A stretch of DNA of 64,000 nt, taken from assembly GCA_945948535.1 (NCBI GenBank), contig CAMFBN010000002.1:240-64239 (forward strand), given 5' to 3'. Source of the stretch: an uncultured Clostridia bacterium (GTDB lineage: Bacteria > Bacillota > Clostridia > Oscillospirales > Oscillospiraceae). Below, piece by piece: positions 3,082-64,000 of this stretch (its first letter is position 1; each line of letters starts with the position of its first letter). Position numbers and translations under genes: made by a program. The notes beneath the pieces were generated by a model. It was not told the origin of the DNA. It searched no databases and saw only the letters and a list, made by a program, of their open reading frames with translations.

Positions 3082-3662
3082 TTCAATTCACCTCCGTAAT
3101 CCGGCATTGGGGTGGAAAGACGTCCATTTTCATCCTTCCTGTTCCAATTCCGCACCGCCGCTCTCCAGTCCTTCATCTTGCTTCTGCCCACCATCCAACC
3201 ATTGGATGTGTAGTGATCAACAAACCGCTCTGGGTCAACATGATAGCCCTTCTCCGCACAGTATGCCCGCACATCATCCACACTTGGAGGGGAAAACAGG
3301 TGGCGGGTGGGCGGCTTGTCCGCCTTACTCTCATAGGACTGGATAGGATATGGATAGGACATGGATTGGATAGGAGTGTCACTTTGCGGCGTTTTGCTGT
3401 CATTTGCTGCATTTTGCTGACCTTTGCTCACCTTAGCATTCTTTGATAGTGTATTGCAATACTCCTGGTATCTGTCAATCTGGTTTGCAACTGCCTGAAA
3501 TGCCACATCTACCGCCGCATCATCCCCGGAATACACATCACCGCCGAATCGATACGAGAAAGCGGCACGCATGAGAATACCAAATTGTTCATCTGAGAAT
3601 TTCCGGGTGATAGCCATGACTTCCGGGAACAGTACCAGCGTTTCCTGTTTCTTCCGTGCCGT
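3069..3662 (-). CDS. Phage replication initiator (DUF6291-like N-terminus, DnaD-like C-terminus); apparent ACG start
   Basis: RKKQETLVLFPE...FSDEQFGILMRAAFSY and FSPPSVDDVRAYC...FVDHYTSNGW..GRSKMKDWRAAVRNW; SD GGAGGTGA is followed 5 nt later by ACG. Confidence 0.8.
   Translation of the reverse strand, partial: TARKKQETLVLFPEVMAITRKFSDEQFGILMRAAFSYRFGGDVYSGDDAAVDVAFQAVANQIDRYQEYCNTLSKNAKVSKGQQNAANDSKTPQSDTPIQSMSYPYPIQSYESKADKPPTRHLFSPPSVDDVRAYCAEKGYHVDPERFVDHYTSNGWMVGRSKMKDWRAAVRNWNRKDENGRLSTPMPDYGGELNCSL
3337..3440. promoter_or_regulatory. Putative replication origin (iterons) inside the initiator gene
   Basis: TTTGC at 3383, 3393, 3403, 3413, 3423 and TTAGC at 3433 (exact 10-bp period); GGATAGGA repeats at 3342-3375. 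Confidence 0.6.
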
Positions 3663-3667
3663 ACCGC

Positions 3668-3880
3668 TCACCTCCCAGAGATGGAATACCGGGCAAATGT
3701 GACCGTTTCGCCGTAGCGGTTTTTCTGGGTGATCATGTCCCGGTGAATGGGAATGCCTGCCTTTTTGAGGTCTGTAATTCTGGAAGCGAGCCGCAGAATG
3801 TGGTATTCCTGCATCGCTTCCAGACTGGTGATACTGCCGTATTCTTCCATGTGGCGGAGAATCTTTTCGCATTGTGTCAT
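3668..3880 (-). CDS. Phage helix-turn-helix protein (HTH_39-like)
   Basis: MTQCEKILRHMEEYGSITSLEAMQEYHILRLASRITDLKKAG. Confidence 0.8.
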   Translation of the reverse strand: MTQCEKILRHMEEYGSITSLEAMQEYHILRLASRITDLKKAGIPIHRDMITQKNRYGETVTFARYSISGR

Positions 3881-3897
3881 ATGTAGCACCTCCGAGA

Positions 3898-4077
3898 TTA
3901 GCCCGCCACGGTGGCGGGAGCGTTCAAAAATTCCACCAGCTTTTCAAGATTGACAAGGTACTTTGTGCCAACCATAACGTAGTAGGGAAATTGCCCACTC
4001 TTTATCCATCGACGAATTGCGCTATACGGTACACCTGTAAGTTCTGCCGCCTTGTTCATCGTTACCATTGTAGGCAT
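3898..4077 (-). CDS. xis: Excisionase-like HTH protein (59 aa, not in ORF track)
   Basis: Hand translation MPTMVTMNKAAELTGVPYSAIRRWIKSGQFPYYVMVGTKYLVNLEKLVEFL; SD AAGGAGG. Confidence 0.75.
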   Translation of the reverse strand: MPTMVTMNKAAELTGVPYSAIRRWIKSGQFPYYVMVGTKYLVNLEKLVEFLNAPATVAG

Positions 4078-4256
4078 GAGCTGGCCTCCTTTGATAGTTC
4101 AGCAATGATCTCCATTACCCGCGCCCTGTCATTCTCTGATAGTTCCCGGCGGAGTTTCCGGGAAAAGTTTCCGTCATTCATTCCGAGACGTTCGGCAATT
4201 TGCCAGAGGCATACACCCGCTTGCTTGGCGGCTTCCCGAATTTCTTTATTACACAT
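4062..4256 (-). CDS. Cro-like HTH regulator
   Basis: MCNKEIREAAKQAGVCLWQIAERLGMNDGNFSRKLRREL; SD GAAGGAGG; divergent from the cI-like gene. Confidence 0.8.
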   Translation of the reverse strand: MCNKEIREAAKQAGVCLWQIAERLGMNDGNFSRKLRRELSENDRARVMEIIAELSKEASSCLQW

Positions 4257-4449
4257 ATGTCCTCCTTCAAGTAAAATTGTTGTTGACTTCCGATCGTAAC
4301 CGTGGTATTCTGTATTCGGAATAAACAACAACATCTTTCTGTTTACAGTATAACATATTTTTGATGTTGTGCCATATGTTCGAAAATAAATCTGAAATCA
4401 GATTTAAGAAATTTATTATTCTGTTTCCAGAAATAGGAGGAATGTTCAA

Positions 4450-5160
4450 ATGTCGGAAGAAAAAATCGGAAAAGCTAGCGTTTCTGAGGAAAAAACGAGA
4501 AAATATAAGCTGACAATTGGGGAACGACTTAAAGACGCTCGCGTAGATTTCAACAAACACAAAAAGCAGACAATCAAAGAAGTGTCCGATGCAACCGGCA
4601 TCCCGCAGTCAACATTATCTGAAATAGAGAATGATAAACGAGAACCAGGAGCCGGAATCATCAGAAAGCTGGCTGAGCATTACGGTGTTTCGGCTGACTT
4701 TCTGCTTGGGTTGTCTGATATAAAGACTTCCGATGTAACAGCTCAGTCGGTCATTGAATACACTGGACTCTCAGAAAAAACTGTGGGTGTGTTGAACAGT
4801 TTGGCCAAAGGTAAAATAAATCATTTAACAGAAGACGGTGAAACTATTAACGGGAATATGCCGCTTCTTGACTGCCTAGATGATTTCTTGAGTATCGCGT
4901 TTAGAAAAGACGTGCTTAAATTCTATATTGCGTTGCGGCAGAACTCGGTGAAACACTTTAATGGTACATCACGCAACTATTTAGATTGGTGGAACGTTGT
5001 TGATGGTGAGGCTCATTGGCATATTAACGGAATGTGTGAATATGCGTGTTTGAAAATTGGAAAAGAAGTGGAGTTGGCATTGCGTGAGAAATATTACAAA
5101 GAAGAACAAAGTGGATTTGTATATATGAATGCTGATGGGAAAGTCGTTGACAACGATTGA
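4450..5160 (+). CDS. XRE-family (cI-like) repressor with non-peptidase C-terminal domain
   Basis: IGERLKDAR...TIKEVSDATGIPQSTLSEIENDKREPG...LAEHYGVSADFLLGLSD. Confidence 0.85.
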   Translation: MSEEKIGKASVSEEKTRKYKLTIGERLKDARVDFNKHKKQTIKEVSDATGIPQSTLSEIENDKREPGAGIIRKLAEHYGVSADFLLGLSDIKTSDVTAQSVIEYTGLSEKTVGVLNSLAKGKINHLTEDGETINGNMPLLDCLDDFLSIAFRKDVLKFYIALRQNSVKHFNGTSRNYLDWWNVVDGEAHWHINGMCEYACLKIGKEVELALREKYYKEEQSGFVYMNADGKVVDND

Positions 5161-7112: not shown

Positions 7113-7352
7113 TCAGATTTCCTTGTACATTCCGGCGGCGTCGTCCTTGCGGACGTTGTCGGAAACCTCCAGAACCTCCACAGCCACCGTGCGGGCGCCC
7201 ATGGAGATTTCAATGCGGTCGCCTACCTTCACATCGTAGCTGGCCTTGACTACTCTGCCGTTTACGCTGATGCGCCCGTTATCGCAGGCTTCGTTGGCAA
7301 CGGTGCGGCGCTTGATGAGCCGGGAAACCTTCAGAAATTTGTCCAGACGCAT
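7113..7352 (-). CDS. yabO: S4-domain RNA-binding protein (YabO/RqcP family)
   Basis: MRLDKFLKVSRLIKRRTVANEACDNGRI. Confidence 0.93.
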   Translation of the reverse strand: MRLDKFLKVSRLIKRRTVANEACDNGRISVNGRVVKASYDVKVGDRIEISMGARTVAVEVLEVSDNVRKDDAAGMYKEI

Positions 7353-7355
7353 GGC

Positions 7356-7631
7356 TTATTTCGCAACGCTGTCCTTCAGCGCCTTGCTGGCCTTAAACCC
7401 GGGCACCCGGGTGGCGGGGATTTCGATGGTTTCCTTGGTGTGGGGGTTACGGCCGATGCGGGCCTCCCGATCCTTGGTCTCGAAAATACCAAAGCCGGAA
7501 ATCTGCACCTTCTCACCCTTCACAAGAGCAGCGGTAATGGCATCGATGGCGGCGTTCAGAACACGCTCGGAATCCTTCTTGGACAGGCCGGTGCTCTCGG
7601 CACAGGCAGTGATCAATTCAGTTTTATTCAT
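7356..7631 (-). CDS. hup: DNA-binding protein HU
   Basis: MNKTELI...VQISGFGIF...GRNPHTKETIEIPA. Confidence 0.97.
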   Translation of the reverse strand: MNKTELITACAESTGLSKKDSERVLNAAIDAITAALVKGEKVQISGFGIFETKDREARIGRNPHTKETIEIPATRVPGFKASKALKDSVAK

Positions 7632-7715
7632 AATGGTAATCCTCTTTTCTACGGAAAAATCGTCACTAGCTTAACATAACTTCCCGAAAAATGCAAGATA
7701 TTTTTGCGGAATTCC

Positions 7716-9311
7716 TCACAATTTGAGGAACTTCGCGATTTTTGCTCCCTTGGGCAGAAGCAGGCAGTCGGACCGGGTAATGGCTTTCAGCTTTACGGCG
7801 GCGAAGGCGTATACGCACACGCCGACGATCACTGGCAGAGCGCACAGCATCAGGCGGCTTCCCAGGCCCAGCAGAGTTAGGCCCCGATAAACGCCGTATA
7901 CGGCTACACCCATGATTGCCGCCGCGAGGAAGGGACGCAGCAAATTTTTCAGCACGGCGGGGGGATTGTCCAGCAGCGCGTGCAGGGAGTAGAGATTCAG
8001 AATGCCAATGGAAACGTAGCACACCAGAATGCCGATGGGAGTACCCAGAATGTTAATGTGGGGATTGCCGGTGAGAATATACACGGCGATGAGATTCAGC
8101 ACGCCGCCGATGAGCATATTCGTCACGGGACGGCCGGCGTGCCCGTGGGCCTGCATGATGGCGGTGGTGACCATGACCACGGCATTGAAGGCGATAGCAA
8201 CGGCAAGTACGAACATGAGCCGGGTGGCAAGGTCCAGATTGGCCCCGGAGTACCGGCCCAGCAGGGCGGTGATGGGCCGGGCCAGCAGGGCCAGGCCAAA
8301 GGCACAGGGCATGGAGATCAGGCCGGTGATGCGCACGGCGGATTCTTCGGTATTTCTGGCCTCAACGTCATTGCACAGGGTCAGCTGGGCGGTAATGGCG
8401 GGGATGATGCTGATGGTGATGGGGGTGATGAAGGCGCAGGGCATATTGAAGATGGTCAGGCACATGCCGTAAATACCCCGCATGGTATCGGCGGCGCCTT
8501 GCGTGTAGCCCAGATTCAGCAGCTGGCCCATGTAAATTTTGGTCTCCATCATGGTGAAGAACTGCAAAATCGCGGAGCCGACGGTGATGGGCACGGCAAT
8601 CATCATCAGGCCCTTGGCGGTGTCCCAGTAGGAACGGGGCTCCTCGGTGGTCACCGGCAGCAAGACGTAGCTCTTGCGGAAGCACAGCCCCAGATAGATG
8701 GAGGACACCAGACAGCTGGCGGTGACGCCCAAGATGGCGCCGCCCGCTGCCAGCGGTACGCTGCCGGTGGTTCTCAGCAGGAACAGAGCGGCGATCATGC
8801 CCACAATCAGCTTCACCACTGCCTCAATGACCTGAGAGATGGAGGTGGGGATCATGTTGCTCTGGCCCTGGAAGAAGCCCCGGAAGGTGCTCATAATGCA
8901 GATGAGCAGCACGCAGGGGCCAAGACAGCCAATGGCGGCCCAGGCGTCGGGCTGGTTCTGGAACTGAGCCAGCTGCCGGCAGAAGACGGTCATCAGCAGG
9001 GTGCCCGCTATGCCAAGGCCGAGGAAAATACCTCTGGCGGTGTGATAAATGCGGCGCACCTGATTGTAGTGCTTTAAAGAGCTGGCCTGGGAGATCATGC
9101 GGCTCATGGCAACGGGCAGGCCCGCCGTGGAGATCATCAGCAGCACGTTATAGATATCGTAGGCGGTGTTGAAGTAGCCGAAGCCCTGCTCGCCAATGAT
9201 GGCGTTCAGGGGAATCTTATACAGGGCACCGATGACCTTGACAATGGCGGTTGCCATGGCAAGCAAGGCCGTACCGTGGAGAAAATTCTGTTTTTTCTGA
9301 GCGTCAGACAT
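7716..9311 (-). CDS. MOP-superfamily flippase (YabM/SpoVB/MurJ-like)
   Basis: KVIGALYKIPL...STAGLPVAMS...RGFFQG...SQVIE; many transmembrane segments; start MSDAQKKQ at 9311. Confidence 0.9.
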   Translation of the reverse strand: MSDAQKKQNFLHGTALLAMATAIVKVIGALYKIPLNAIIGEQGFGYFNTAYDIYNVLLMISTAGLPVAMSRMISQASSLKHYNQVRRIYHTARGIFLGLGIAGTLLMTVFCRQLAQFQNQPDAWAAIGCLGPCVLLICIMSTFRGFFQGQSNMIPTSISQVIEAVVKLIVGMIAALFLLRTTGSVPLAAGGAILGVTASCLVSSIYLGLCFRKSYVLLPVTTEEPRSYWDTAKGLMMIAVPITVGSAILQFFTMMETKIYMGQLLNLGYTQGAADTMRGIYGMCLTIFNMPCAFITPITISIIPAITAQLTLCNDVEARNTEESAVRITGLISMPCAFGLALLARPITALLGRYSGANLDLATRLMFVLAVAIAFNAVVMVTTAIMQAHGHAGRPVTNMLIGGVLNLIAVYILTGNPHINILGTPIGILVCYVSIGILNLYSLHALLDNPPAVLKNLLRPFLAAAIMGVAVYGVYRGLTLLGLGSRLMLCALPVIVGVCVYAFAAVKLKAITRSDCLLLPKGAKIAKFLKL

Positions 9312-9331
9312 GAAAAACGTCCTTTCGGGGC

Positions 9332-9426
9332 GGCCCGCAAGGCGGGCGGCTAATGCGTTACGAACACTGGCGGTCAATGTTACACCATTGGGCACTGCTC
9401 GGTATCGCTTTCTGGTACTGTTAATT
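9332..9426. repeat. REP-like element C, copy 1
   Basis: Hairpin GCCCGC-AAG-GCGGGC, then AATGCGT...GTTACACCATTGGG...CTCGGTATCGCTTTCTGG, shared with 18126-18216. Confidence 0.75.
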
Positions 9427-9429
9427 AGA

Positions 9430-9615
9430 TAAATTGTTCTTTAGTTGACAATTGACAGTTGACAATTTAGGAGTCCCTGCGGGACAATTAAAAAATGTCA
9501 TAACTGGCAGGTTCCTTTGGGAAACCCACTGGTATTTCGTGCTTGTAGTTTATTTTAATTCATCCCGAAGGGATACCACAATTGTCAATTGTTCATTGTT
9601 AATTGTCAATTCAAT
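9430..9615 (+). repeat. Heptamer-arm element, long type, copy 1
   Basis: (TTGACAA)n left arm, hairpins 9473-9485 and 9562-9574, inverted (TTGTCAA)n right arm; near-identical to 18221-18412 and 40203-40396. Confidence 0.92.
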
Positions 9616-9629
9616 TCTTGTTTACCGGA

Positions 9630-10946
9630 TTATTTGGTTTCCTCAAACAATTTGGGAATTGCGTAGGTGGTCAGTTCCTCCACCACTTCCTTTAAGTCGA
9701 TGGTGGGGAAGGTGCCGTTCTGGTACAGAATTCTGCCCCGAACCATGGTCATGGCCACATCGCCGCCCTTGGCGGACCACAGAAGGCCGTTCAGCACATT
9801 GTGGCAGGGCATCAGGTGGGGAGCGGTGAAATCCACGAGAACAATGTCCGCGTCCATGCCCACCTGCAGCATCCCGCATTCCTTGCTCCTGCCCTGGGCC
9901 TGCGCGCCGGTGACGGTGGCCATCATCAGGGCGGCGGAAGCGGGAAGGGTGGCGCTGTCGCCGCTTTCCTTCCGGGCGTCCATGGCGGCAAAGCGCATGA
10001 CCTCGAACAGATCCAGGTTGCCGCACTCGATAGCGCCGCCGGTGCCGAGCGCCACATTCATGCCGGCCTTTACGGACTCCAGAATGGGGGTGGTAGCCTC
10101 CCCGGATTTGTAGGCGGCAACGGGAGTCGCCACGGCAGTAACGTGCTTTTTCCCTAACAGTTTACGCTCATGGGGCTCCAGATATGTACAGCTGGCGGCG
10201 GTGGTGGGGACGCAGAACAGCCTGTGGCAGTCCAGAAGCTCCCCGGGGCCCATGCCGGTGCGCTCCAGACAGGATTCCACCTCGCCCTTTGTCTCTGCCA
10301 GATGCAGCTGCATTCCGATGCCTTTCTCGAAGGCGTAGCCGGCAAGCCCTTCCCAGAGACGGTAGTTGCTGGTGTACTCGGCGTAGATGCCCGCGTCGAT
10401 TTTGATGCGCCCCTCGTCAAAGCCGTTCCACCGGTCAACCACCCGGACAAGCTCCTGACACTGCTCGTCGGTTTCAAAATCGAATTCCTCGTTGGGGTCG
10501 ATGAAGCGGTAGCTGGAAAGGGCCAGATTGGCCTTGATGCCGGACTGGGCCACGGCCTCGGCGGTGGCGTTGGGGTAATAGTACAGGTCGGAAACCGAGG
10601 TCACGCCAAAACGCAGACATTCGGCGATGGCGAGAAGCGCGGCGGATTTCGCACTGCGGGAGTCCATTTTGGCTTCCTTTTGGAGCAATGCCTGCAGGGC
10701 TTCCGTGTTGCCTAAATCATCGGTGTAACTGCGTAGTCCGGCGGTGGCCAGGTGGGTGTGGCAGTTCACAAGACCGGGAATCGCCACCATGCCGGTGCCG
10801 TCAATGATGGTTTTTGGCGGCTGGGCCGGGGCGGATTTGCTGATGGAGACGATTTTGCCGCCGTCGATGCCGATGTACGCACCGAAAATGACCTCCATCC
10901 GGGGATTCATGGTCACGGCGGTGACGTTGGAGATTAAAGTGTCCAA
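9630..10946 (-). CDS. Amidohydrolase family (MtaD-like), with altered metal-ligand motifs
   Basis: PGLVNCHTH, HLAET, ADIVLVD; TTG start after AGGAAAGG; LGTGG instead of the usual LGTDG. Confidence 0.85.
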   Translation of the reverse strand: MDTLISNVTAVTMNPRMEVIFGAYIGIDGGKIVSISKSAPAQPPKTIIDGTGMVAIPGLVNCHTHLATAGLRSYTDDLGNTEALQALLQKEAKMDSRSAKSAALLAIAECLRFGVTSVSDLYYYPNATAEAVAQSGIKANLALSSYRFIDPNEEFDFETDEQCQELVRVVDRWNGFDEGRIKIDAGIYAEYTSNYRLWEGLAGYAFEKGIGMQLHLAETKGEVESCLERTGMGPGELLDCHRLFCVPTTAASCTYLEPHERKLLGKKHVTAVATPVAAYKSGEATTPILESVKAGMNVALGTGGAIECGNLDLFEVMRFAAMDARKESGDSATLPASAALMMATVTGAQAQGRSKECGMLQVGMDADIVLVDFTAPHLMPCHNVLNGLLWSAKGGDVAMTMVRGRILYQNGTFPTIDLKEVVEELTTYAIPKLFEETK

Positions 10947-53824: not shown

Positions 53825-54301
53825 ATGGCTAAGGAATACAAAATTACCAGTCTGCGCCTTTCCGATCTGGAGAAGGAACTGAATTATCTGAAGACCACCC
53901 GTGAGCGCGAGATTGCCGCCATGATCGCGGAAGCCCGCTCCTACGGCGACTTGTCCGAAAACTCCGAGTACGATGCCGCCAAGAACGAGCAGGCAAAGCT
54001 CTACGGCCGCATTGCCGAGATCGAGGACATCCTGTCCCACGCCGTCATCATCGAGGACGAGAATGAAGCCAGCGGTCGTGTGGGTCTGGGCTGCACCGTG
54101 GTTGTGGAGGACGAGAAGGGCAAGCAGACCACCTACCGCATCACCGGTTCTCAGGAGGCCAACCCCATGGAGGGCAAGCTGTCCGACGACTCCCCCTTCG
54201 GCCGCAGCATCGTAGGCAAGGCTGCCGGCGAGACCTTCACCGTCAACGCGCCTGTTGGTTCCTTCACCATGAAGGTCATCAGCGTCACCCGTGAGGGCTG
54301 A
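53825..54301 (+). CDS. greA: Transcription elongation factor GreA
   Basis: ARSYGDLSENSEYDAAK, SDDSPFG. Confidence 0.97.
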   Translation: MAKEYKITSLRLSDLEKELNYLKTTREREIAAMIAEARSYGDLSENSEYDAAKNEQAKLYGRIAEIEDILSHAVIIEDENEASGRVGLGCTVVVEDEKGKQTTYRITGSQEANPMEGKLSDDSPFGRSIVGKAAGETFTVNAPVGSFTMKVISVTREG

Positions 54302-54305
54302 TTCT

Positions 54306-55799
54306 ATGGCAAAATTCGTACCCCAGGCAGAAATGCCCCTGTCCGACCAGGTGCGGGTTCGTCGGGAAAAGCTGGAGAATCTCCGGGCCGAGGGCTTCGA
54401 CCCCTTTGTGCAGACCCGTTTTGAAGTGACCTCCGATTCTGCCGCAATTAAGGCGAATTTTGAAGCCATGGAGGGGCAGACTGTCCGTCTGGCGGGCCGT
54501 ATCATGAGCAAGCGGGGCATGGGCAAGGTGTCCTTCTGCGATTTGCAGGACAGCACCGGCCGGATTCAGCTCTATGTCCGGTTTGACGAAATGGAGGAAA
54601 GCTCCTTCCAGCGCTTTAAGAAGAACGACATCGGCGATATCGTGGGTGTGGTTGGCGACGTGTTCAAGACAGAGCGGGGCGAGATTTCCGTCCGTGTCCA
54701 CGAGGCCACGCTGCTTTCGAAATCCCTGCTGCCCCTGCCCGAAAAGTTCCACGGCCTGACCGACAAGGAGATTCGCTTCCGTCAGCGTTATGTTGACCTG
54801 ATGGTGAATCCCGAGGTCAAGCAGAACTTCGTTATCCGCTCCAAATTCATCAAGCATCTGCGCAATTATCTGGACAATATGGGTTATATTGAAGTGGAGA
54901 CCCCGGTGCTGAACACCATTGCCGGCGGCGCGGCTGCCCGTCCCTTCGTCACCCACCACAATACTCTGGACATCGATATGTATATGCGTATCGCCACGGA
55001 GCTGCCCCTGAAGCGGCTGATTGTGGGCGGCATGGACCGGGTTTACGAGGTGGGCCGCATCTTCCGCAACGAGGGCATGGACCCTAAGCATAACCCTGAG
55101 TTTACCTCTGTGGAGCTGTATCAGGCCTACGCCGACTTCCATGACATGATGGATATTGCGGAGGGAATCTATACCTCCTTCGCAAAAGAGGTGATGGGTA
55201 CCTATGAACTGGAATGGATGGGCGAGAAAATCGACCTGACGCCCGGCTGGCCCCGTCTGACCATGGTGGAAGCCGTTAAGAAGTATGTGGGCATTGACTT
55301 CGGTGCCATCACCGATGATGCCGAAGCGGTTGCCGCAGCCAAGGCTAAAGGCGTGGAGCTGGCGGATGCCGCCGAAAAGACCTGGGGCAACGCCCTGTAC
55401 GCCTGCTTCGATCAGAAGGTGGAGGAGCATCTGATTCAGCCCACCTTCATCACCATGTATCCTGTGGAGGTTTCTCCCCTGACCAAACGTTCTCCAGAGG
55501 ATCCCCGGCTGACCGAGCGCTTTGAATTCTTTATCAACCGCAGCGAAATGGGCAACGCTTACTCCGAACTGAACGACCCCATCGACCAGCGGGAACGTTT
55601 CCAGAAGCAGGTGGAGCAGCGGGAGCGGGGCGACGACGAGACCGAGATGCTGGATGAGGATTTCCTGACTGCTCTGGAATACGGTATGCCCCCCACGGGC
55701 GGCATGGGTATGGGTATCGATCGTGCTGTCATGCTCTTCACCGGTGCCGATACCATCCGCGAAGTCATTTTGTTCCCCACGATGAAGCCCCTCGACTAA
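54306..55799 (+). CDS. lysS: Lysyl-tRNA synthetase (class II)
   Basis: RFRQRYVDL, EVETP, FRNEG...HNPEF, GMPPTGGMGMGIDR. Confidence 0.98.
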   Translation: MAKFVPQAEMPLSDQVRVRREKLENLRAEGFDPFVQTRFEVTSDSAAIKANFEAMEGQTVRLAGRIMSKRGMGKVSFCDLQDSTGRIQLYVRFDEMEESSFQRFKKNDIGDIVGVVGDVFKTERGEISVRVHEATLLSKSLLPLPEKFHGLTDKEIRFRQRYVDLMVNPEVKQNFVIRSKFIKHLRNYLDNMGYIEVETPVLNTIAGGAAARPFVTHHNTLDIDMYMRIATELPLKRLIVGGMDRVYEVGRIFRNEGMDPKHNPEFTSVELYQAYADFHDMMDIAEGIYTSFAKEVMGTYELEWMGEKIDLTPGWPRLTMVEAVKKYVGIDFGAITDDAEAVAAAKAKGVELADAAEKTWGNALYACFDQKVEEHLIQPTFITMYPVEVSPLTKRSPEDPRLTERFEFFINRSEMGNAYSELNDPIDQRERFQKQVEQRERGDDETEMLDEDFLTALEYGMPPTGGMGMGIDRAVMLFTGADTIREVILFPTMKPLD

Positions 55800-56065: not shown

Positions 56066-56332
56066 ATGAAAGACAACTATGAACCGATCAAGAGCATGAA
56101 GGAAGTTCCGGTACAGCTGCGGAAGCTGCGCAGAGAGTATGTCCGCTATCAACAGGCAGAGCTGATTTACAGTCTGTCACACAAAAAACTGCTGGAGCTT
56201 GCCAGCGACGCGGGCGCGATTTACCGCTTTGACAGCACCGTTTTGATCAACAGAGATATTTTTGATGCTTACTTGGAGCGGTTCCATGAGCCTGCTACCA
56301 GCAAGTACAGAAATGGAGGCGATGCAGAATGA
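56066..56332 (+). CDS. DUF6462-like small protein (excisionase-like fold inferred)
   Basis: EYVRYQQAELIYSLSHKKLLELASDAGAIYR...VLINRDIFDAYLE; SD AGGAGG. Confidence 0.75.
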   Translation: MKDNYEPIKSMKEVPVQLRKLRREYVRYQQAELIYSLSHKKLLELASDAGAIYRFDSTVLINRDIFDAYLERFHEPATSKYRNGGDAE

Positions 56333-56574
56333 GCGGAAATGTATGGATGTTCTCCGACCAGATTGACGATGAAGACGTGGAATTTATGACCCACGACTTT
56401 GTAACATACAACATGGCGTGTGATTATTGCCGCCTGGGTCTCAAGCCCGTCACTCGTATAGCACATGAAGCCGGAGCGGTTTACAAGATTGGCAAAAAGG
56501 TACTGATTCGCAGAAGCATTTTTGAAGCATATCTGCGAGAACAGCGCAGTGTGGAAAGGAGCGAGCAGGAATGA
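56329..56574 (+). CDS. Second DUF6462-like protein
   Basis: FVTYNMAC...IAHEAGAVYKIGKKVLIRRSIFEAYL; paralog of the previous gene; ATGA overlap. Confidence 0.72.
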   Translation: MSGNVWMFSDQIDDEDVEFMTHDFVTYNMACDYCRLGLKPVTRIAHEAGAVYKIGKKVLIRRSIFEAYLREQRSVERSEQE

Positions 56575-56948
56575 ATGACGGTCTTGAATATAGCCTCGAA
56601 TACATCCGTTCAGGTGATTACTTTATCCCGAATTTGACACTACCAGAGGAAACCCGTCCCATTGGCAAGTGGGGGCGGATGCACCGAGAGTATCTGAAAG
56701 AGCATAAACCGATTCAGTATAACTGTCTGTTCCTGTCCGGCAAGCTGTGGACATACCTTGCTGACCTGAATGAGCAGGCTCAGGACAGGCTGGAGCAGAT
56801 GGTCCACCAGATGAAGATGGCCGAGGGAGTGACAGAAGAATTGAAAGCTGCTGACCCGATGGCTTGGGTTCAGCGAATGAACAACATCCGAAACCGGGCA
56901 GAGGAGATTATCCTGCGGGAATTGGTCTACGAGGAGGATAGGGCATGA
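56571..56948 (+). CDS. tnpV: TnpV family protein
   Basis: GDYFIPNL...IGKWGRMHREYLKEH...TEELKAADPMAWVQRMNNIRNRAEEII. Confidence 0.88.
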   Translation: MNDGLEYSLEYIRSGDYFIPNLTLPEETRPIGKWGRMHREYLKEHKPIQYNCLFLSGKLWTYLADLNEQAQDRLEQMVHQMKMAEGVTEELKAADPMAWVQRMNNIRNRAEEIILRELVYEEDRA

Positions 56949-57208
56949 GCATACTGGAAGAGCTTTGGTATGGCAATATCGAGCCAACGGAATATGACAC
57001 TTCTCCCTGTAAGGAATACAAGAAAGCACTCCAGTTGGTCAATCGAAACGAAGAAGAATTGCATGCTACCATGACGGATGCACAGAAAGAATTGTTCTCC
57101 CGGTATGCAGACAGTGTGAGGGAATTTCAGGATATGGCAGAGTGTCTGCTGTTCCAGAACAGTTTCCGTTTAGGTGCAAGAATGATGCTGGAGATTATGG
57201 AAGAATAA
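56945..57208 (+). CDS. DUF6809-like protein
   Basis: MSILEELWYGNIEP...FQNSFRLGARMMLE. Confidence 0.75.
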   Translation: MSILEELWYGNIEPTEYDTSPCKEYKKALQLVNRNEEELHATMTDAQKELFSRYADSVREFQDMAECLLFQNSFRLGARMMLEIMEE

Positions 57209-57416
57209 CGAATGATATTACAGCAGCGCCCACGGCCGGTAACCGATAGGCGCTGCTCTATTTGCTGTTGCAGCCAGTCTTTCATGACGGATAGCGGCGT
57301 TTGTTATGAATGCCGAATGCGTACGCTTGACATGGGGTTATTTCACTGATAAAATTAGCTGTAATCGTACATTTCCAAATTGGAAAAGCGTGACACCATG
57401 GAGATGAGGTGGGGAC

Positions 57417-58430
57417 TTGCCTACAGAGCACGTTGAAAAGAAAATGTATACCCTGAATGATATTGCCAAGGAGCTGGGCGTGAACAAGGCCACGGTATCC
57501 AAAGCAATCTCCGGAAAGGGTAATTTAAGTGCGCAGACGAGAGCCAGAATTCTTGCCTTCATCGACCAGTGCGGTTACCGCCCCAATGCGGTGGCCCAGA
57601 GCCTGGCGAAAAATCAGACCTACAATATCGGGCTGATGATGCCGGACTATGTGGGGGTGCTGGATGAGGCGTTCTTCCGGGAATGTCTGCGGGGCGTGTG
57701 CAAAATTGCGTCCAATAATGGCTATGATGTGCTGATGGTCATGGACAGCGAAAAACCGGTGGAGCATATCGCTCGCCTCATAGACAACAGGAAAATAGAC
57801 GGTGTCATTGCCATGCGCAGCCTGGTGGATTCTCCGGTGGTGGGCTTTCTAAAGGAAAAGCAGGTGCCCTTTGTGATCATCGGGCCAACCTCGGACAAGT
57901 CCGTTCTCAGCGTAGATAATGACAACCGGGGTGCCTGCCGGGATATCACAGCCCTTCTGATTACCAGAGGAATCCGCAAAATGGCGCTGATCGGCGGAGA
58001 CGACAACAACTGTGTTACCCACAGCCGCCTGAAGGGCTTCTGGGATGCCTGCGATCAGGCGGGACTATCCAGAGATGACCAGCTGGTGTATCTGAATGTG
58101 AACCGGGATAACCGGCTGCCGGAGGTCATCGATACGGTATTGCCCCAGAAGCCGGATTGTATTGTCTGCATGGACGATTACATCTGCAACCTGGTGCTGA
58201 TTCAGCTGCGCACCAGCAATGTGCAGGTTCCCCGGGATGTGAAGATTGTCAGCTACTACGACAACATTCTGCTGGAAAACAACATTCCCTCCATTACCAG
58301 CCTGCATTTCGATGCTGCCCAGCTGGGTAAGATTGCCTGTCAGAGACTGATTGACAAACTGGGAGGTAAGGCGGACGGAAATTACATTTTGCCCGGATAT
58401 CAGATGGTCATGCGGGATTCAACAAAATAG
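57417..58430 (+). CDS. LacI-family transcriptional regulator
   Basis: TLNDIAKELGVNKATVSKAISG...GYRPNAVAQSL; periplasmic-binding-protein-like core. Confidence 0.94.
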   Translation: MPTEHVEKKMYTLNDIAKELGVNKATVSKAISGKGNLSAQTRARILAFIDQCGYRPNAVAQSLAKNQTYNIGLMMPDYVGVLDEAFFRECLRGVCKIASNNGYDVLMVMDSEKPVEHIARLIDNRKIDGVIAMRSLVDSPVVGFLKEKQVPFVIIGPTSDKSVLSVDNDNRGACRDITALLITRGIRKMALIGGDDNNCVTHSRLKGFWDACDQAGLSRDDQLVYLNVNRDNRLPEVIDTVLPQKPDCIVCMDDYICNLVLIQLRTSNVQVPRDVKIVSYYDNILLENNIPSITSLHFDAAQLGKIACQRLIDKLGGKADGNYILPGYQMVMRDSTK

Positions 58431-58586
58431 GACTTTGAAAGGGCTGCGGCGGGATGCCGCGGCCCTTCTTGTTTTTGGAATCGCAGGCGGAAGGAAAACG
58501 ATTGCCAGAAAAAGAACACTTTCTGTCACTATGAACAAATGGTGAACGCGAATCTTGGCGCTAATCCCAAATTGACAGGAAAAGTT

Positions 58587-58623
58587 TGCTATAATATACT
58601 TTACTCAGAAAGCAACCGGTTGC
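58587..58623 (+). promoter_or_regulatory. Extended -10 promoter and LacI-type operator
   Basis: TGcTATAAT (58587-58595); perfect palindrome GCAACCGGTTGC (58612-58623). Confidence 0.7.
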
Positions 58624-58663
58624 CACACTGGTTGCGAATTAACAACACTAGGAGGAAAAACAC

Positions 58664-59983
58664 ATGAAAAAACTGATTGCCCTGCTGCTGGCAGCGGTCA
58701 TGGTTCTGTCTCTCGCCGCCTGCGGCGGCAGCGGAAAGACCGCCGAGACCCAGGCCCCTGCTGCCGACGCCAATGCCCCTGCCGCTCCCGCTGCTTCCGG
58801 CGGCCCCATCTCCCTGACCCTGTGGGGTGCGGAGGAGGATCAGGCGCTGCTTGCCGAACTGGTGGAAAAGTTCAAGGCCCAGTACCCCGACCAGACCTTT
58901 GACATCCAGATCGGCGTGGAGTCCGAGTCCACTGCCAAGGACACCGTCCTGACTGACGTAGAGGCTGCTGCCGATGTCTTCGCCTTCGCCAACGACCAGC
59001 TGAACGATCTGGTTGCTGCCGGTGCGCTGCTGGCTCTGGACGGCGATATCGCCCAGGTTCTGCCCGCTTACGCAGGCAAGACCATCGACGATGTGAAGGC
59101 TGCCAACGGCGAAGGCTCCGTGGCTGCCGCATCCAAGGACGGCAAGCTGTACGCCTTCCCCATGGGCGGCGGCAACAACTACTTCCTGTACTATGATTCC
59201 ACCAAGATCACTGCCGAGCAGGCTCAGTCCTGGGACGGTCTGCTGGCCGCTGCTGAGGCTGCCGGCTCCAAGGTCGGCATGACCTACGCCTCCGGCTGGT
59301 ACAACGCTTCCTTCTTCCTGGGCGCAGGCTTCATCACCGACATGAACCCTGACGGCACCACCGTCATGGACTGGAACGGCACCTCTGCAGACGGCTTCAC
59401 CGGTATGGACGTTGTCAAGGGCATGGCTGCCATCGCCGCACACCCCGGCTTCCTGGCCATTGCTGACGGCGATATCTCCAACCAGATTGCTTCCAAGGCT
59501 GTCTGCGCGGTTGTCTCCGGCACCTGGGACGCAGGCGCTGCCGAAACCGCTTTTGGTGAGGGCTACGCTGCTACCAAGCTGCCCACCTTCACCTGCGCTG
59601 ACAAGCAGGTTCAGATGTCCTGCTACTCCGGCTTCAAGCTGATGGGCGTCAACGCCTACTCCAAGAATTCCGGCTGGGCCGTGCTGCTGGCTGAATTCCT
59701 GACCAACGAGGCTTCTCAGACTGCCCGGTTTGCCTCCCGCCAGCTGGCTCCCACCAACCTGAAGGCTGCCGCGGACGAGGCTGTTACATCCAACGTCGCC
59801 ATCGCCGCTTCCGCTGCCCAGGACGTTTATGGCTCCGTGCAGAATGTGGGCGGCAAGTTCTGGGATCCCACTGCCACCTTCGGCCAGATGATTGCCAACG
59901 GCGATCTGAAGGCTGACGATGACGCGGCAATCCAGACCGCGCTGGATACTCTGGTGGAGGGCGTCACTGCTCCTGTGGAATAA
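58664..59983 (+). CDS. Oligosaccharide ABC substrate-binding lipoprotein (MalE/CycB-like)
   Basis: Lipobox LAAC; ADVFAFANDQL; DGKLYAFP; LYYD. Confidence 0.92.
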   Translation: MKKLIALLLAAVMVLSLAACGGSGKTAETQAPAADANAPAAPAASGGPISLTLWGAEEDQALLAELVEKFKAQYPDQTFDIQIGVESESTAKDTVLTDVEAAADVFAFANDQLNDLVAAGALLALDGDIAQVLPAYAGKTIDDVKAANGEGSVAAASKDGKLYAFPMGGGNNYFLYYDSTKITAEQAQSWDGLLAAAEAAGSKVGMTYASGWYNASFFLGAGFITDMNPDGTTVMDWNGTSADGFTGMDVVKGMAAIAAHPGFLAIADGDISNQIASKAVCAVVSGTWDAGAAETAFGEGYAATKLPTFTCADKQVQMSCYSGFKLMGVNAYSKNSGWAVLLAEFLTNEASQTARFASRQLAPTNLKAAADEAVTSNVAIAASAAQDVYGSVQNVGGKFWDPTATFGQMIANGDLKADDDAAIQTALDTLVEGVTAPVE

Positions 59984-60008
59984 TATCACAATACACACCC
60001 CCAATGCT

Positions 60009-60034
60009 ACCCCATATGCGAAAGCATATGGGGT
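60009..60034 (+). promoter_or_regulatory. Intercistronic stem-loop (probable mRNA stabiliser for the SBP gene)
   Basis: Perfect ACCCCATATGC-GAAA-GCATATGGGGT with no U-tract. Confidence 0.6.
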
Positions 60035-60074
60035 GGTTCAAAAAGTAAAAGTAAATTGAGAAAGGAAGCTCTCT

Positions 60075-61538
60075 ATGGAAGCTAAGACTAGCGGACTGAG
60101 TAGGCTCGGCAGCGCCGTATCCGGCTTCTTTGCGGTCATTGCCCGCTTCTTTTCAGAATTCGGTACGGCTATGGCGAAGGGTGATCTCTTTGTCAAGCTG
60201 TCCTTACTCTGGTGGGGCGCCGGTTATTTTCGCAGAAGGCAGTATGTGAAAGCCATCCTGATGACGCTGCTGGAAATCGCGGTCATTGTATTTACCCTTA
60301 ATTTCGCCATGGCCTATGTGCCTAAGTTCGGAACCCTGGGCACGGTTCAGGCAGAGCAGGTCTTCAATATGCAGACCATGCAGACGGAATGGAACGACTA
60401 TGACAATTCCTTCATGATCCTGCTGTTCTCCCTGTTCAGCTTTGTGATCTGGTTTGCCGCAGCCGTTGTGTGCATGCGCAATGTGGTAAACGTCTACGAA
60501 TTGCAGATGCAGGCCCAGCGGGGCAAGCATATCAACACCTTCGTGGAGGATCTGCGGGAATACCTGGACAAGAAGTTCCACATCACTCTGCTGTCCCTGC
60601 CGGTTCTGGGCATTGTGGTATTCACCCTGATCCCCATGCTGCTGCTGATTCTGGTAGCCTTTACAAACTACGACCAGCAGCATATGCCGCCTACCAACCT
60701 CTTTGGCTGGGTCGGTTTTAGCAACTTTGTGACGCTGTTTGGCGGCGGCATCACCACAACCTTCGGCTATGCCTTTGTCCGGATTCTGGGATGGACCATC
60801 ATCTGGTCCTTCTTCGCCACGTTGACCACCTACATAGGCGGTATTCTCATGTCCCTGCTGCTCAACAGCAAGCTGACCCGTGGCACAAAAATCTGGCGCA
60901 CCATGCTGGTGGTCACCATCGCCGTCCCCCAGTTTGTGTCCCTGCTTCTGATGCGCAATTTCTTTGCCAACAGCGGCATCGTCAACACCATCTGCGCCAA
61001 CATCGGTCTGACAGGATTTCTGCGGGATATCGGCCTGATTTCCACCAGCTACATTCCCTTCATGACGGCTCCCGGCTGGGTGCACGTTATGATCATTCTG
61101 ATCAACATCTGGATCGGCATTCCTTATCAGATGCTGATTGCCACCGGCGTGCTGATGAATCTGCCCACGGATCAAATTGAAAGCGCCAAGATTGATGGTG
61201 CAAACCCCTTCCAGGTGTTCAAGTCCATCACCATGCCCTACATGCTTCAGGTCACCGGCCCCGCGCTGATTACCGATTTCGTGAAGAACTTCAACAACTT
61301 CAACGTGATCTACCTGCTGACCCAGAACGTGTTCGTCACCACGAACCAGTTCATGGCCAACTCTCAGGCAAAGGAAACGGACCTGCTGGTCACCTGGCTG
61401 TTTACGCTGACACAGGATTACTACAACTACAAGATGGCCTCCGTCATCGGCATCATGGTATTCATCGTCTGCGCAGTCTTTACCCTGGTCGGCTTCAACT
61501 TTATGATCAGCGGTGATAAGGAGGGAACCTATCAATGA
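60075..61538 (+). CDS. Sugar ABC permease (MalF-like)
   Basis: AFTNYD, AVPQFVSLL, EAA-like loop IESAKIDGANPFQVFKSITMP. Confidence 0.93.
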   Translation: MEAKTSGLSRLGSAVSGFFAVIARFFSEFGTAMAKGDLFVKLSLLWWGAGYFRRRQYVKAILMTLLEIAVIVFTLNFAMAYVPKFGTLGTVQAEQVFNMQTMQTEWNDYDNSFMILLFSLFSFVIWFAAAVVCMRNVVNVYELQMQAQRGKHINTFVEDLREYLDKKFHITLLSLPVLGIVVFTLIPMLLLILVAFTNYDQQHMPPTNLFGWVGFSNFVTLFGGGITTTFGYAFVRILGWTIIWSFFATLTTYIGGILMSLLLNSKLTRGTKIWRTMLVVTIAVPQFVSLLLMRNFFANSGIVNTICANIGLTGFLRDIGLISTSYIPFMTAPGWVHVMIILINIWIGIPYQMLIATGVLMNLPTDQIESAKIDGANPFQVFKSITMPYMLQVTGPALITDFVKNFNNFNVIYLLTQNVFVTTNQFMANSQAKETDLLVTWLFTLTQDYYNYKMASVIGIMVFIVCAVFTLVGFNFMISGDKEGTYQ

Positions 61539-62437
61539 GCAAGTGGAAAACAGATATCGGTACCAGCGCCAGCGAGAGCGCCATTCAGGCCGGTAAGGCA
61601 AGGCAAAAGCGCAGAATTTTCCTGCACAACGCCTTCATTGCACTGCTGTGCGTCATCTGGATCATTCCCATTGTGTGGCTGGTCTGCACCTCCTTCAGCG
61701 CCTATTCCGGCATGAACACCTCCACCTTCTTCCCGGAGAAATGGAGCGCCATCCACTATGTCAAGCTGCTGACACCGGACACGGTGAACCAGTTCCCCAC
61801 ATGGTTCTGGAACACCTTTGTCATCGCCTGCTGGACCTGCGTGATCTCCACGCTGTTTGTGATTATGGTGGCCTACGCCATGTCTGTCACCCGGTTCAAA
61901 TCCCGGAAGGCTCTGATGAACGCAGCGGTGCTCATGAACCTGTTCCCCGGTATGCTGTCCATGATCGCCGTGTACTTCACCCTGAAAACCTTTGGATTGA
62001 CCAACAGCCATATCGGTCTGATTCTGGTCTACTCCGCCTCTGCCGGACTGGGCTATCTGGTTGCCAAGGGCTTCTTTGATACCGTGCCCCGTGCGCTGTG
62101 CGAGGCTGCCCGGATTGACGGCTGCAACGAAGCCATGATTTTCTGGAAGATCGTGATGCCCACCTCCAAGCCCATTATCGTCTACACTGTTATCAGCAGC
62201 TTCCTGGTGCCCTGGATGGACTTTGTGTACGCCAAGATGCTCCTGAACGCCGGTGTGTCCGCCAACTATACCGTTGCAGTGGGCCTGTACCGGATGCTGG
62301 AAAAGAGCCTGATCAACACCTACTTCACCCAGTTCTGCTGCGGCGGCGTGCTGGTCTCCATTCCCATCTCCATTCTGTTCATGATTATGCAGAAGTTCTA
62401 TGTGCAGGGTGTCACCAGCGGCGCTGTGAAGGGCTAA
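61535..62437 (+). CDS. Sugar ABC permease (MalG-like)
   Basis: EAARIDG, PTSKPIIVY, YTVAVGLY, YVQGVTSGAVKG. Confidence 0.93.
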   Translation: MSKWKTDIGTSASESAIQAGKARQKRRIFLHNAFIALLCVIWIIPIVWLVCTSFSAYSGMNTSTFFPEKWSAIHYVKLLTPDTVNQFPTWFWNTFVIACWTCVISTLFVIMVAYAMSVTRFKSRKALMNAAVLMNLFPGMLSMIAVYFTLKTFGLTNSHIGLILVYSASAGLGYLVAKGFFDTVPRALCEAARIDGCNEAMIFWKIVMPTSKPIIVYTVISSFLVPWMDFVYAKMLLNAGVSANYTVAVGLYRMLEKSLINTYFTQFCCGGVLVSIPISILFMIMQKFYVQGVTSGAVKG

Positions 62438-62449
62438 GCATTCCTTTTG

Positions 62450-62485
62450 GCATCGGCGGCTGTCCCATCTGCCACCGATGCTTTT
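62450..62485 (+). terminator. Terminator-like hairpin after the permease genes
   Basis: GCATCGGCGGC...GCCACCGATGC-TTTT. Confidence 0.55.
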
Positions 62486-62521
62486 GCAGAAACATTTCCT
62501 TATGGAAAGGATACAAAACCT

Positions 62522-64000
62522 ATGGATCAATTTGTTGTCAATATTATCCACCGCCCGGAGATGGTTCCCGAGTATGCGGAAAAGGTCACCGGTCAGGGCA
62601 AAACGGAGGACATTGGCCGGAAGGCGCTGCTGACGGAGAGCCTGGACATTTTCAAAATCCAGCAGCAGTGCGCCCATGAAAACGGCCTGAAAACCACCAT
62701 CCAGATGACCTACGCCAGCCTGTTCAACGACGAGGCTGTGGCGCTTGCCAAGGAGCACCATGAAAAATATGGGGATGAGATCGCCCTGAGCCTGCTGGGC
62801 CTGCCCTGCGAGCAGTTCCGGGAAAAATACAAGACCAAGGACTTCTGCATCTGGATGTTCTCCATGGAGGACAAAAAGGCCATCGTCCGGGATGTGTTCG
62901 GCAAATTCTATGAGCGGTTTGGCTTCTATCCCGAATCCACCGGCTCTTACTATATGGACGCCGACCTGATCAACTTCATCAAGGCGGAGTACCCTTCCGT
63001 CAAGTGCGCGGTAGCCACCTGCTGGGAGGAAGGCCCCAAGGCTTACCATACCTGCAACAACTCCTGGTACACCTTCATGGACGGCGGCCCCTGGGCGCCC
63101 TGGATTCCCTCCAAACAGAACACTCACGCCCCCGCTGCCAATGAAGCCGAGGACTCCGGCATCGTCGCCATTCCCCACCTGAGCCGGGATTTGCTTGCCT
63201 GCTACGACGGCAACGGCTCCAATTTCGGCACCCATCCCCAGAACGTGCTGCGGGGCATGATCTATGATACGGAAACCTGGGAATATCCCTATCTGTACAA
63301 CCTGATCGACCAGTACCGGAGCCTTGCCAAGTACAACAACGGCTACGCCTACAACATGATGTTCGTTGGCCCCGGCTGGATGAACAAGATGGGCCGTTGG
63401 GAAGCACCGTATGAGCTGCTGAAAAAGTCCTACTGGGACGGCTGTGCCTACTATGGTCAGCTGAAAAAGGAGGGCAAGCTCACGGACATGACTATGTCCG
63501 AGTTTGCAGACTTTTACCGTCAGAAGAAGACCTACACCGAGCCGGAATGCGCCCTGTGGCGGGATATCCTCTACGGCAGCAACAAGCAGCTGTTCTGGTA
63601 CTGCGACCCCTATATGCGGGCAGGCGTCAACATGGATCAGGGCGGCGCCATCTTCGACCTCCGGCCCTACGTTGCCAAGCTGGAGTGGCCCGTGGGCATC
63701 GGTACGCCCCACATTCAGGACGCCAGCTATCCCTTCCTGATGCAGGAGAAGTACCGCGCCGGTTACTTCACCCACTACGCGGGCGAGGGCACCATTCGCA
63801 GCGCAAAGGTTTGCCACAATGGGGAGGAAGTTGACCTGTGCCTGTGCCGTACCAAAGCCCACTTCTCTCAGGAGGGCAGCCGCCGCATTCTGACCCTGGA
63901 TCCCGTGGAAATCGCGTTCTCCGATCTGACAGTGAAGCTGCAGACGGTGATTACCTTTGCCGAGGGCGAGAGCAGCATCCGCATTGACCGGAACATTCTG
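62522..64000 (+). CDS. Uncharacterised protein, >493 aa, truncated by the window end (putative carbohydrate-active enzyme)
   Basis: Open frame from ATG 62522 (SD AAGGA) to 64000 with host-like codon usage: MDQFVVNIIHRPEMVPEYAEK...FYERFGFYPESTGSYYMD...CWEEGPKAYH; absent from the ORF track because there is no stop. Confidence 0.85.
   Translation, partial: MDQFVVNIIHRPEMVPEYAEKVTGQGKTEDIGRKALLTESLDIFKIQQQCAHENGLKTTIQMTYASLFNDEAVALAKEHHEKYGDEIALSLLGLPCEQFREKYKTKDFCIWMFSMEDKKAIVRDVFGKFYERFGFYPESTGSYYMDADLINFIKAEYPSVKCAVATCWEEGPKAYHTCNNSWYTFMDGGPWAPWIPSKQNTHAPAANEAEDSGIVAIPHLSRDLLACYDGNGSNFGTHPQNVLRGMIYDTETWEYPYLYNLIDQYRSLAKYNNGYAYNMMFVGPGWMNKMGRWEAPYELLKKSYWDGCAYYGQLKKEGKLTDMTMSEFADFYRQKKTYTEPECALWRDILYGSNKQLFWYCDPYMRAGVNMDQGGAIFDLRPYVAKLEWPVGIGTPHIQDASYPFLMQEKYRAGYFTHYAGEGTIRSAKVCHNGEEVDLCLCRTKAHFSQEGSRRILTLDPVEIAFSDLTVKLQTVITFAEGESSIRIDRNIL

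Follow-up and report, generated by a model that had tools for sequence, protein, structure and literature searches.

Galactan use in Bacillus subtilis is encoded by the ganR-ganSPQAB operon, whose GanB protein is secreted. Here, we describe a locus of similar make-up in a 64,000-nucleotide (nt) stretch of DNA from an uncultured Clostridia bacterium (assembly GCA_945948535.1, contig CAMFBN010000002.1; this whole stretch is hereafter called the window), where it occupies positions 57417–64000 of the forward strand and ends in a large gene that runs off the window end. The product of this gene, a protein of ~608 amino acids (aa), is labeled BIG. Contig L001, the DNA of which is 93–96% identical to window positions 57064–64000, stands in for the sequence past the window end and encodes a full-length relative of BIG (P0001, 608 aa) that shares 98.6% identity with the window fragment across 492 aa. 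The locus resembles the B. subtilis operon in its LacI-type repressor and palindromic operator, its GanS-like lipoprotein, its MalF/MalG-like permeases, and the lack of an ATPase gene, as well as in the GH53 and GH42 genes found downstream on L001. It differs in that BIG and a zinc-ribbon gene occupy the place of ganA immediately 3' of the permeases, that its GH53 is cytoplasmic, that galK-galT-galE and a TraX gene are embedded in it, and that its substrate-binding protein (SBP) scores far under the GanS cutoff. Among the features of gan-type loci, the window itself holds a LacI gene with an operator-like site, a CUT1 binding protein, and two permeases. Inspection of the downstream genes, proposed as a check by a first-pass annotation of this DNA, was carried out on the near-identical L001: past BIG, the order is zinc ribbon, galK, galT, galE, a 368-aa GH53, a TraX-family membrane protein, and a GH42 β-galactosidase. 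These genes show the part of the locus at the window end to be the front half of a gan-type β-1,4-galactan and Leloir locus.

We propose, with a probability of roughly 60%, that the locus is a GanR/ganSPQ-type operon of a pig-gut Clostridia bacterium and that BIG, with the zinc-ribbon protein as second subunit, makes up a cytoplasmic carbohydrate-active enzyme (CAZyme) that acts on imported β-1,4-galacto-oligosaccharides. It is probable that BIG is an enzyme with a functional link to galactan use, and the odds that it cleaves glycosidic bonds are about even; phosphorolysis or disproportionation is an unlikely chemistry for it.

The zinc-ribbon partner is encoded on L001 by a 74-aa open reading frame (ORF) that overlaps the last 28 nt of the BIG gene and carries two CxxC pairs (..RCPSCF..(19)..YCMRCQF..). 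In the window genome, this gene would lie past the window end, and the pair was thus read from L001. The 28-nt overlap with the BIG 3' end is the arrangement of the close BIG clade, which we surveyed in a synteny set of 80 species loci (10 kb on each side, tblastn with L001 and L002 proteins): the zinc ribbon is present in all 80 loci, with the same overlap offset in 79. A CxxC..CxxC ORF of 62–105 aa lies behind BIG or overlaps it in each context looked up by exact protein sequence (L001–L005, L007–L010), and the zinc ribbon was also found in most distant-clade loci for which the 3' end is available. The exceptions are L100 and L102, two distant BIG genes from one metagenome (238–1920 and 237–1904, respectively), in which three-frame downstream translations gave no CxxC..CxxC ORF. 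In the most distant members of the BIG family, P0209 (L006 1382–3412) and P0218, the two proteins are naturally fused, with the zinc ribbon at the C-terminus behind a linker of ~45 aa; the small zinc-ribbon protein matches the fused tail in BLASTP (E 2e-7). The overlapping genes and the natural fusions therefore argue for a physical complex of BIG and the zinc ribbon at a ratio of about 1:1.

The same 80 loci tie the pair to galactan. Their canonical gene order is LacI-SBP-P1-P2-BIG-ZnR-GH53-TraX (P1 and P2, permeases 1 and 2; ZnR, zinc ribbon), and GH53 is the most frequent neighbor after the zinc ribbon (74/80 loci), followed by permease 2 (58/80), permease 1 (50/80), the SBP (47/80), LacI (46/80), TraX (32/80), GH42 (18/80 within 10 kb), GH2 (7/80), and galK/T/E (2–3/80). 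GH53 lies directly 3' of the zinc-ribbon gene in most loci and directly 5' of BIG in about a dozen. The first-pass annotation had BIG acting on an imported glycan; the presence of GH53 within 10 kb in 74 loci supports this and allows the glycan to be named as β-1,4-galactan. It had also placed the protein inside the cell, which agrees with a BIG N-terminus that has no hydrophobic stretch and no signal peptide, and with the adjacent GH53 of L001, which begins directly with its catalytic domain. The closest species-level relatives of the locus are mostly labeled Lachnospiraceae or Oscillospiraceae. Two features of L001 were recorded in addition: the insertion of galK-galT-galE between the zinc-ribbon gene and GH53 (L001 7524–11201) is rare among the 80 related loci, and a TraX-family (PF05857) membrane protein, the name of which derives from F-pilin acetylation, follows the cytoplasmic GH53 (L001 12330–13085).

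Regulatory sites place BIG in the same control unit as the transporter. In the window, a perfect palindrome, AGCAACCGGTTGCC, is the candidate LacI operator (58611–58624); it starts 11 nt past the -10 hexamer of the operon promoter-like site and has no other zero-mismatch copy within the window. The core GCAACCGGTTGC occurs 40 times at ≤1 mismatch in the 80 related loci, compared to a mean of 2.8 and a maximum of 24 for 59 composition-matched control palindromes. At ≤2 mismatches, it is found upstream of the SBP gene (35 sites), LacI (13), and BIG (12), and the 12 sites before BIG belong to loci in which BIG-ZnR-GH53 is separate from the transporter. Because an operator-like palindrome precedes these separately placed units, BIG is considered to belong to the same LacI regulon.

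BIG is also the most constrained protein of the operon. Using 38 loci that contain all six genes, we compared pairwise identities all against all. The median was 82.9% for BIG (minimum 78.5), 75.7% for the zinc ribbon, 72.9% and 68.8% for permeases 2 and 1, respectively, 61.7% for GH53, and 60.3% for the SBP. BIG was the most conserved protein in 85.5% of the locus pairs, a figure that retains some bias from picking the loci by BIG similarity. The large identity gap to the operon neighbors points to strong purifying selection on BIG. Recent horizontal transfer is an unlikely source of this conservation, given that the neighbor genes in the same loci are far more diverged.

The locus sequence occurs mainly in metagenomes of the pig gut, with further matches in gut metatranscriptomes. 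Contigs derived from RNA extend over the operon and across the junction of the second permease and BIG, for example at 61643–62874 (X25 record 15, 98.7% identity) and 62363–62741 (X26 record 21, one mismatch). These records support expression but are not decisive, being assembled contigs in which DNA carry-over is possible. In a further metatranscriptome contig (X24), 59 nt of the spacer between permease 2 and BIG (62435–62495) are replaced by 15 other letters, most likely as strain variation that leaves the coding sequences unaffected.

The BIG gene (62522–64000, forward strand, co-oriented with the permease genes) is an open frame from an ATG to the window end that encodes residues 1–492 of ~608 of a cytoplasmic protein. 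The ATG at 62522 was taken as the start because all homologs begin with MDQF or MNQF; a TTG at 62447, 10 nt past the permease stop, was rejected as it lacks homolog support. The frame and its lack of a signal peptide are as the first-pass annotation described them, and the four motifs quoted there (FGFYPESTGSYYMD, CWEEGPKAYH, GGPWAPWIP, and FGTHPQN) are all present in the translation. The richness in aromatic and acidic residues noted there is likewise borne out by P0001 (6.6% Y, 4.6% F, 2.3% W, 14.5% D+E; isoelectric point 5.05). That the gene is missing from the ORF track, as was also remarked, is probably explained only by its running off the window end. The family comprises 2,559 clusters at 90% identity (typically 608–613 aa), all named "hypothetical protein" wherever the source gives a name, and 574 representatives at the 50% level; at least 594 species genomes contain a relative. 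Given this number of clusters and genomes, and the RNA-derived contigs that cover it, the BIG gene is real.

Searches with the window fragment and P0001 against Pfam (E ≤ 10), NCBIfam, and PDB sequences gave zero matches, so that BIG could not be assigned to a known family at the sequence level, in line with the first reading of this DNA. We found no characterization of BIG, 3LM3, DUF3863, PF12979, or BDI_3119 in the literature, and the idea of a candidate new CAZyme family is consistent with both results. GH53 loci have been listed in Roseburia and E. rectale (Sheridan et al. 2016, PMC5320581), and the passages of that paper on GH53 and galactan make no mention of a BIG-like protein.

We built an alignment of 33 BIG sequences with 22–89% identity (A1); the locus scan was based on the tighter alignments A2 and A3, A1 being too divergent for it. 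The AlphaFold2 model of BIG built on A1 (mean predicted local distance difference test score [pLDDT] 91.6, predicted template modeling score 0.92) contains a (β/α)7-type barrel (residues ~1–290), a helical linker (297–335), and a galactose-mutarotase-like β-sandwich (342–606). The top Foldseek match in the PDB is 3lm3 (E 3e-15, template modeling [TM] score 0.70 on the target, 437 columns, 13% identity), which is BDI_3119 of Parabacteroides distasonis, a DUF3863 protein titled "putative glycoside hydrolase/deacetylase". This best structural match has the loop GGPWxPWyPS..PA in common with BIG, and it is through this loop that the A1 profile finds 3lm3, and only 3lm3, among PDB sequences (E 0.016). 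It differs from BIG in length (434 aa vs. 608 aa), in the absence of P-H-L-x-R-D from the aligned stretch, and in having no known zinc-ribbon partner.

The GH57 4-α-glucanotransferase of Thermococcus litoralis (1k1x/1k1w) aligns with BIG over both domains (E 7e-13 to 4e-11, ~760 columns) and shares the full-length order of barrel, helical region, and C-terminal β-sandwich; like BIG, it is cytoplasmic, and it acts on oligosaccharides. Identity is only 9–10%, however, with a global TM of 0.27–0.29 and a root-mean-square deviation of ~20 Å, and the two differ in domain orientation, in substrate (α-glucan vs. a β-galactan context), and in the zinc-ribbon subunit, which GH57 does not need. The N-terminal H-R-P and G-D-E-I of BIG may recall the conserved GH57 regions I (HQP) and II (GQLEIV). 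GH38 α-mannosidases (7ufs, E 4e-7; 5jm0, E 1e-5) have a barrel, helical bundle, and β-supersandwich as in BIG, but are much larger (940–1040 aa) and stand in another substrate context. The CE4-like deacetylase 3qbu (HP0310; E 8e-6) belongs to the same barrel superfamily, although CE4/NodB enzymes are single-domain proteins and BIG has an added supersandwich and no evident Asp-His-His metal triad. The C-terminal half of BIG gave many further matches to galactose-mutarotase-like sandwiches. The model thus bears out the NodB/GH57/GH38-like barrel that had been suggested from the letters, and no confident match to a characterized family emerged by sequence, the likeness being at fold level only (≤13% identity).

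Profile searches agree with this picture. Pfam DUF3863 (PF12979) matched two of the 33 BIG members below threshold (best E 0.0036) and did not match P0001; Glyco_hydro_57 (PF03065) gave no match to P0001 at E ≤ 10 or to the 33 members at E ≤ 1, GH38 (PF01074) none to BIG or the 33 members, and Polysacc_deac_1 (PF01522) none in any of the 33. From the Foldseek and profile results, we conclude that BIG and DUF3863 are remote sisters within the GH38/GH57/CE4 barrel superfamily and that BIG falls outside the named families.

Fifteen positions are invariant in all 33 sequences of A1 (E86, E170, G171, G188, W191, P196, R222, R244, Y257, N272, R366, D379, R381, G392, and P404), and the near-invariant positions include D146, C167, E169, H219, and D223. 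All invariant residues are kept in the window copy, which also fits the family in its motifs (GD-E, C-F/W-E-E-G, GGPWxPWxPS, P-H-L-x-R-D, and D-L-R-P-Y) and, at a full length of ~608 aa, its size range (570–680 aa). In the model, C-F/W-E-E-G lies directly past the strand at 162–166 and P-H-L-x-R-D directly past the strand at 215–218. The two invariant glutamates are as would be expected of a glycosidase, and the four invariant arginines (R222, R244, R366, and R381) would suit an anionic ligand, for instance phosphate.

Under the proposed mechanism, BIG and the zinc-ribbon protein would assemble as an approximately 1:1 cytoplasmic enzyme that, together with GH53, processes imported β-1,4-galacto-oligosaccharides, most likely by hydrolysis and possibly by phosphorolysis or disproportionation. 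The galactose or galactose-1-phosphate released would feed the Leloir genes downstream. Candidate catalytic residues are E86 of GD-E and E170 of C-F/W-E-E-G (a motif located where a barrel strand has its C-terminal end), and both may be helped by D146, H219, and D223. The aromatic loop GGPWxPWxPS, common to BIG and 3lm3, is a likely sugar-binding platform, and the zinc ribbon may serve as a structural or active-site-capping subunit. A more specific version, which we regard as doubtful, makes BIG and its zinc-ribbon subunit the founders of a new CAZy family, whose members would be heteromeric enzymes of the cytoplasm; in the galactan clade, they would carry out a reaction without a known enzyme, either phosphorolysis of β-1,4-galacto-oligosaccharides to galactose-1-phosphate or a MalQ-like disproportionation of them. 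The four invariant arginines would be compatible with phosphate binding. Anaerobic Firmicutes use phosphorolytic routes based on GH94 and GH130 for cello- and manno-oligosaccharides; if true, phosphorolysis by BIG would be the galactan counterpart of these routes.

The part of the locus ahead of BIG, all on the forward strand, contains every element that the first-pass annotation had listed there (LacI, palindromic operator, SBP, and two permeases). A promoter-like site (57327–57355; TTGACA, 17-nt spacer, TAAAAT, TG-extended; 11/12 consensus positions) precedes the gene for a GanR-like LacI-family repressor of 337 aa (57417–58430; Pfam LacI, Peripla_BP_1, and Peripla_BP_3), which in NCBIfam matched only CcpA/RbsR-type models below cutoff. 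In a consensus scan, an intrinsic-terminator-like hairpin with a 13-pair stem and T-run was found 3' of this gene (58439–58467), followed by the operon promoter-like site (58572–58600; TTGACA, 17-nt spacer, TATACT; 11/12 consensus positions). The GanS-like CUT1-type substrate-binding lipoprotein (58664–59983; 439 aa, lipobox LAAC) matches Pfam SBP_bac_8 (E 9e-24); its match to NCBIfam GanS is weak (E 8e-20, 71 bits, compared to an equivalog cutoff of 700). The MalF/GanP-like permease (60075–61538; 487 aa) and the MalG/GanQ-like permease (61535–62437; 300 aa) both contain BPD_transp_1 and match the MalF (E 3e-39) and MalG (E 2e-37) models, respectively, below cutoff. The start of the second permease gene overlaps the stop of the first by 4 nt.

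Between lysS (54291–55799) and the LacI gene lies a region of lower guanine-cytosine content (~0.48–0.49) with small genes on the forward strand (56066–57208) that encode DUF6462, DUF6462/Tn916-Xis-like, TnpV, and DUF6809 proteins, and that looks like the remnant of an integrative or mobilizable element. In the 80 related genomes, these mobile genes do not accompany the galactan locus, apart from a single TnpV match. We therefore rejected the idea that the locus is their cargo, since they are absent beside it in other genomes.

Distant BIG clades (members at 26–45% identity) were surveyed for their neighbors. In four of these loci, L105, L107, L108, and L111, a GH53 gene stands on each side of the pair. 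In L107, L108, and L111, the upstream GH53 is large and probably secreted (7190–9937, 2289–4946, and 7258–9702, respectively; multidomain, 814–915 aa, with Big_4 in L107) and the downstream one is cytoplasmic, whereas the upstream gene of L105 is cut by the contig end. This arrangement suggests a division of labor between extracellular and intracellular galactanases around the BIG pair. Other contexts are more varied: GH123, GH36, GH43, GH28, and GH2 in L007; an SBP, GH36, and a large protein with a carbohydrate-binding module and a weak GH98 match in L010; CE4 in L009; GH26+CBM11 and GH5+CBM4_9 in L094/L095; and a GH16-like protein in L096. Sodium:solute symporters are found in L098 and L104, a dehydrogenase and a xylose-isomerase-like barrel in L101, and apiosidase-like, GDSL, and YdjC genes in L110. 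The first-pass annotation had named homologs away from sugar transport loci as grounds against its reading; BIG homologs, distant clades included, sit in carbohydrate loci. That some clades lie beside mannanase, α-galactosidase, and other loci suggests a wider function in intracellular oligosaccharide handling.

Several observations weigh against a galactan-processing two-subunit enzyme. There is no activity on record for any member of the BIG family, and the nearest structure, 3lm3, is itself uncharacterized and so gives no mechanism. The likeness to GH57 and GH38 is confined to the fold (≤13% identity, global TM ~0.28), and both families act on α-linked glycans, whereas galactan is β-linked. 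According to the DSSP assignment of the model, E86 lies at the start of a strand and not at its end, and the placement of E86 and E170 in a putative active site is based on secondary-structure position and conservation. GH42 or GH2 is present beside BIG in 25 of the 80 loci, L001 included, and BIG is therefore no simple replacement of a β-galactosidase. One close-clade pair (L005/L041, 10001–12048, ~85–88% identity) is flanked by DegV and MgtE genes, and no gene for a CAZyme or a sugar transporter lies within 10 kb; it may be a relocated copy or the sign of a second role. The distant copy L097 adjoins SecA and has no carbohydrate neighbors. Finally, the clades adjoin chemically different glycans (galactan, mannan, α-galactosides), which may indicate a chemistry without linkage specificity.

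This variety of glycans would suit a decoration common to many plant glycans, and hence a BIG that acts before GH53 and GH42 as a metal-dependent deacetylase or esterase of the CE4/NodB type, or as another non-glycosidic sugar modifier such as an isomerase or epimerase. The fold superfamily does include CE4 (3qbu, E 8e-6), the title of 3lm3 names a deacetylase as well as a glycoside hydrolase, conserved His and Asp residues lie near the barrel strand ends (H10, H219, D146, and D223), and 32/80 loci have, behind GH53, a gene for TraX, whose family has been associated with acetylation. Nevertheless, we consider a deacetylase or similar modifier improbable: Polysacc_deac_1 matches none of the 33 members, H10 is not invariant and the metal triad is not evident, a pair of invariant glutamates is seen more typically in glycosidases, and barrel plus supersandwich fits GH57/GH38 better than CE4. 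Separate CE4, YdjC, or GDSL genes beside some homologs would also be redundant with such an activity, and pectic β-1,4-galactan side chains are not known to be heavily acetylated, which counts in the same direction.

The copies without carbohydrate neighbors (L005, L097), together with the lack of a known catalytic activity for any BIG member or 3lm3, are also compatible with a pair that is not enzymatic but an oligosaccharide sensor, regulator, or chaperone, in which BIG would bind sugar and the zinc ribbon would contact nucleic acid or protein. Nucleic-acid binding and protein contacts are frequent roles of zinc ribbons, and the very high conservation of BIG would fit many interaction partners. 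Yet the operon already holds a LacI repressor with a matching operator, the invariant acidic and basic residues are concentrated in motifs of the barrel, the fold relatives of known function are enzymes, and the place in catabolic operons, the overlap with the partner, and the tight spacing to GH53 are typical of a pathway enzyme, all of which makes a sensor or chaperone very improbable. Hardly credible at all is a housekeeping or mobile passenger gene without a specific galactan role, even though two DUF6462 genes, TnpV, and DUF6809 lie directly upstream of the LacI gene and the L005/L041 pair has no CAZyme genes around it. GH53 is found within 10 kb in 74/80 species, usually adjacent, and the operator is shared; other genomes carry the locus without these mobile genes; the neighbors diverge normally while BIG stays conserved, indicating selection and not recent transfer; and RNA contigs join BIG to the permease gene. 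Synteny has thus largely refuted a passenger origin.

Pectic galactan is a major dietary fiber, and Lachnospiraceae-type Clostridia are dominant fiber fermenters of the gut. The usual reading of their galactan operons is "transporter + GH53 + β-galactosidase", but the most conserved protein of such operons in at least 80 species is part of an unannotated two-gene unit. The fold superfamily and the operon type were already known; what is new is a candidate CAZyme family with an obligate zinc-ribbon subunit. If catalytic, BIG would add a new family of CAZymes to the GH38/GH57/CE4 barrel superfamily, and this family would be the first there to have an obligate zinc ribbon as a subunit and to be tied to β-galactan; a step would then be missing from current pathway models and from CAZyme-based profiles of metagenomes.

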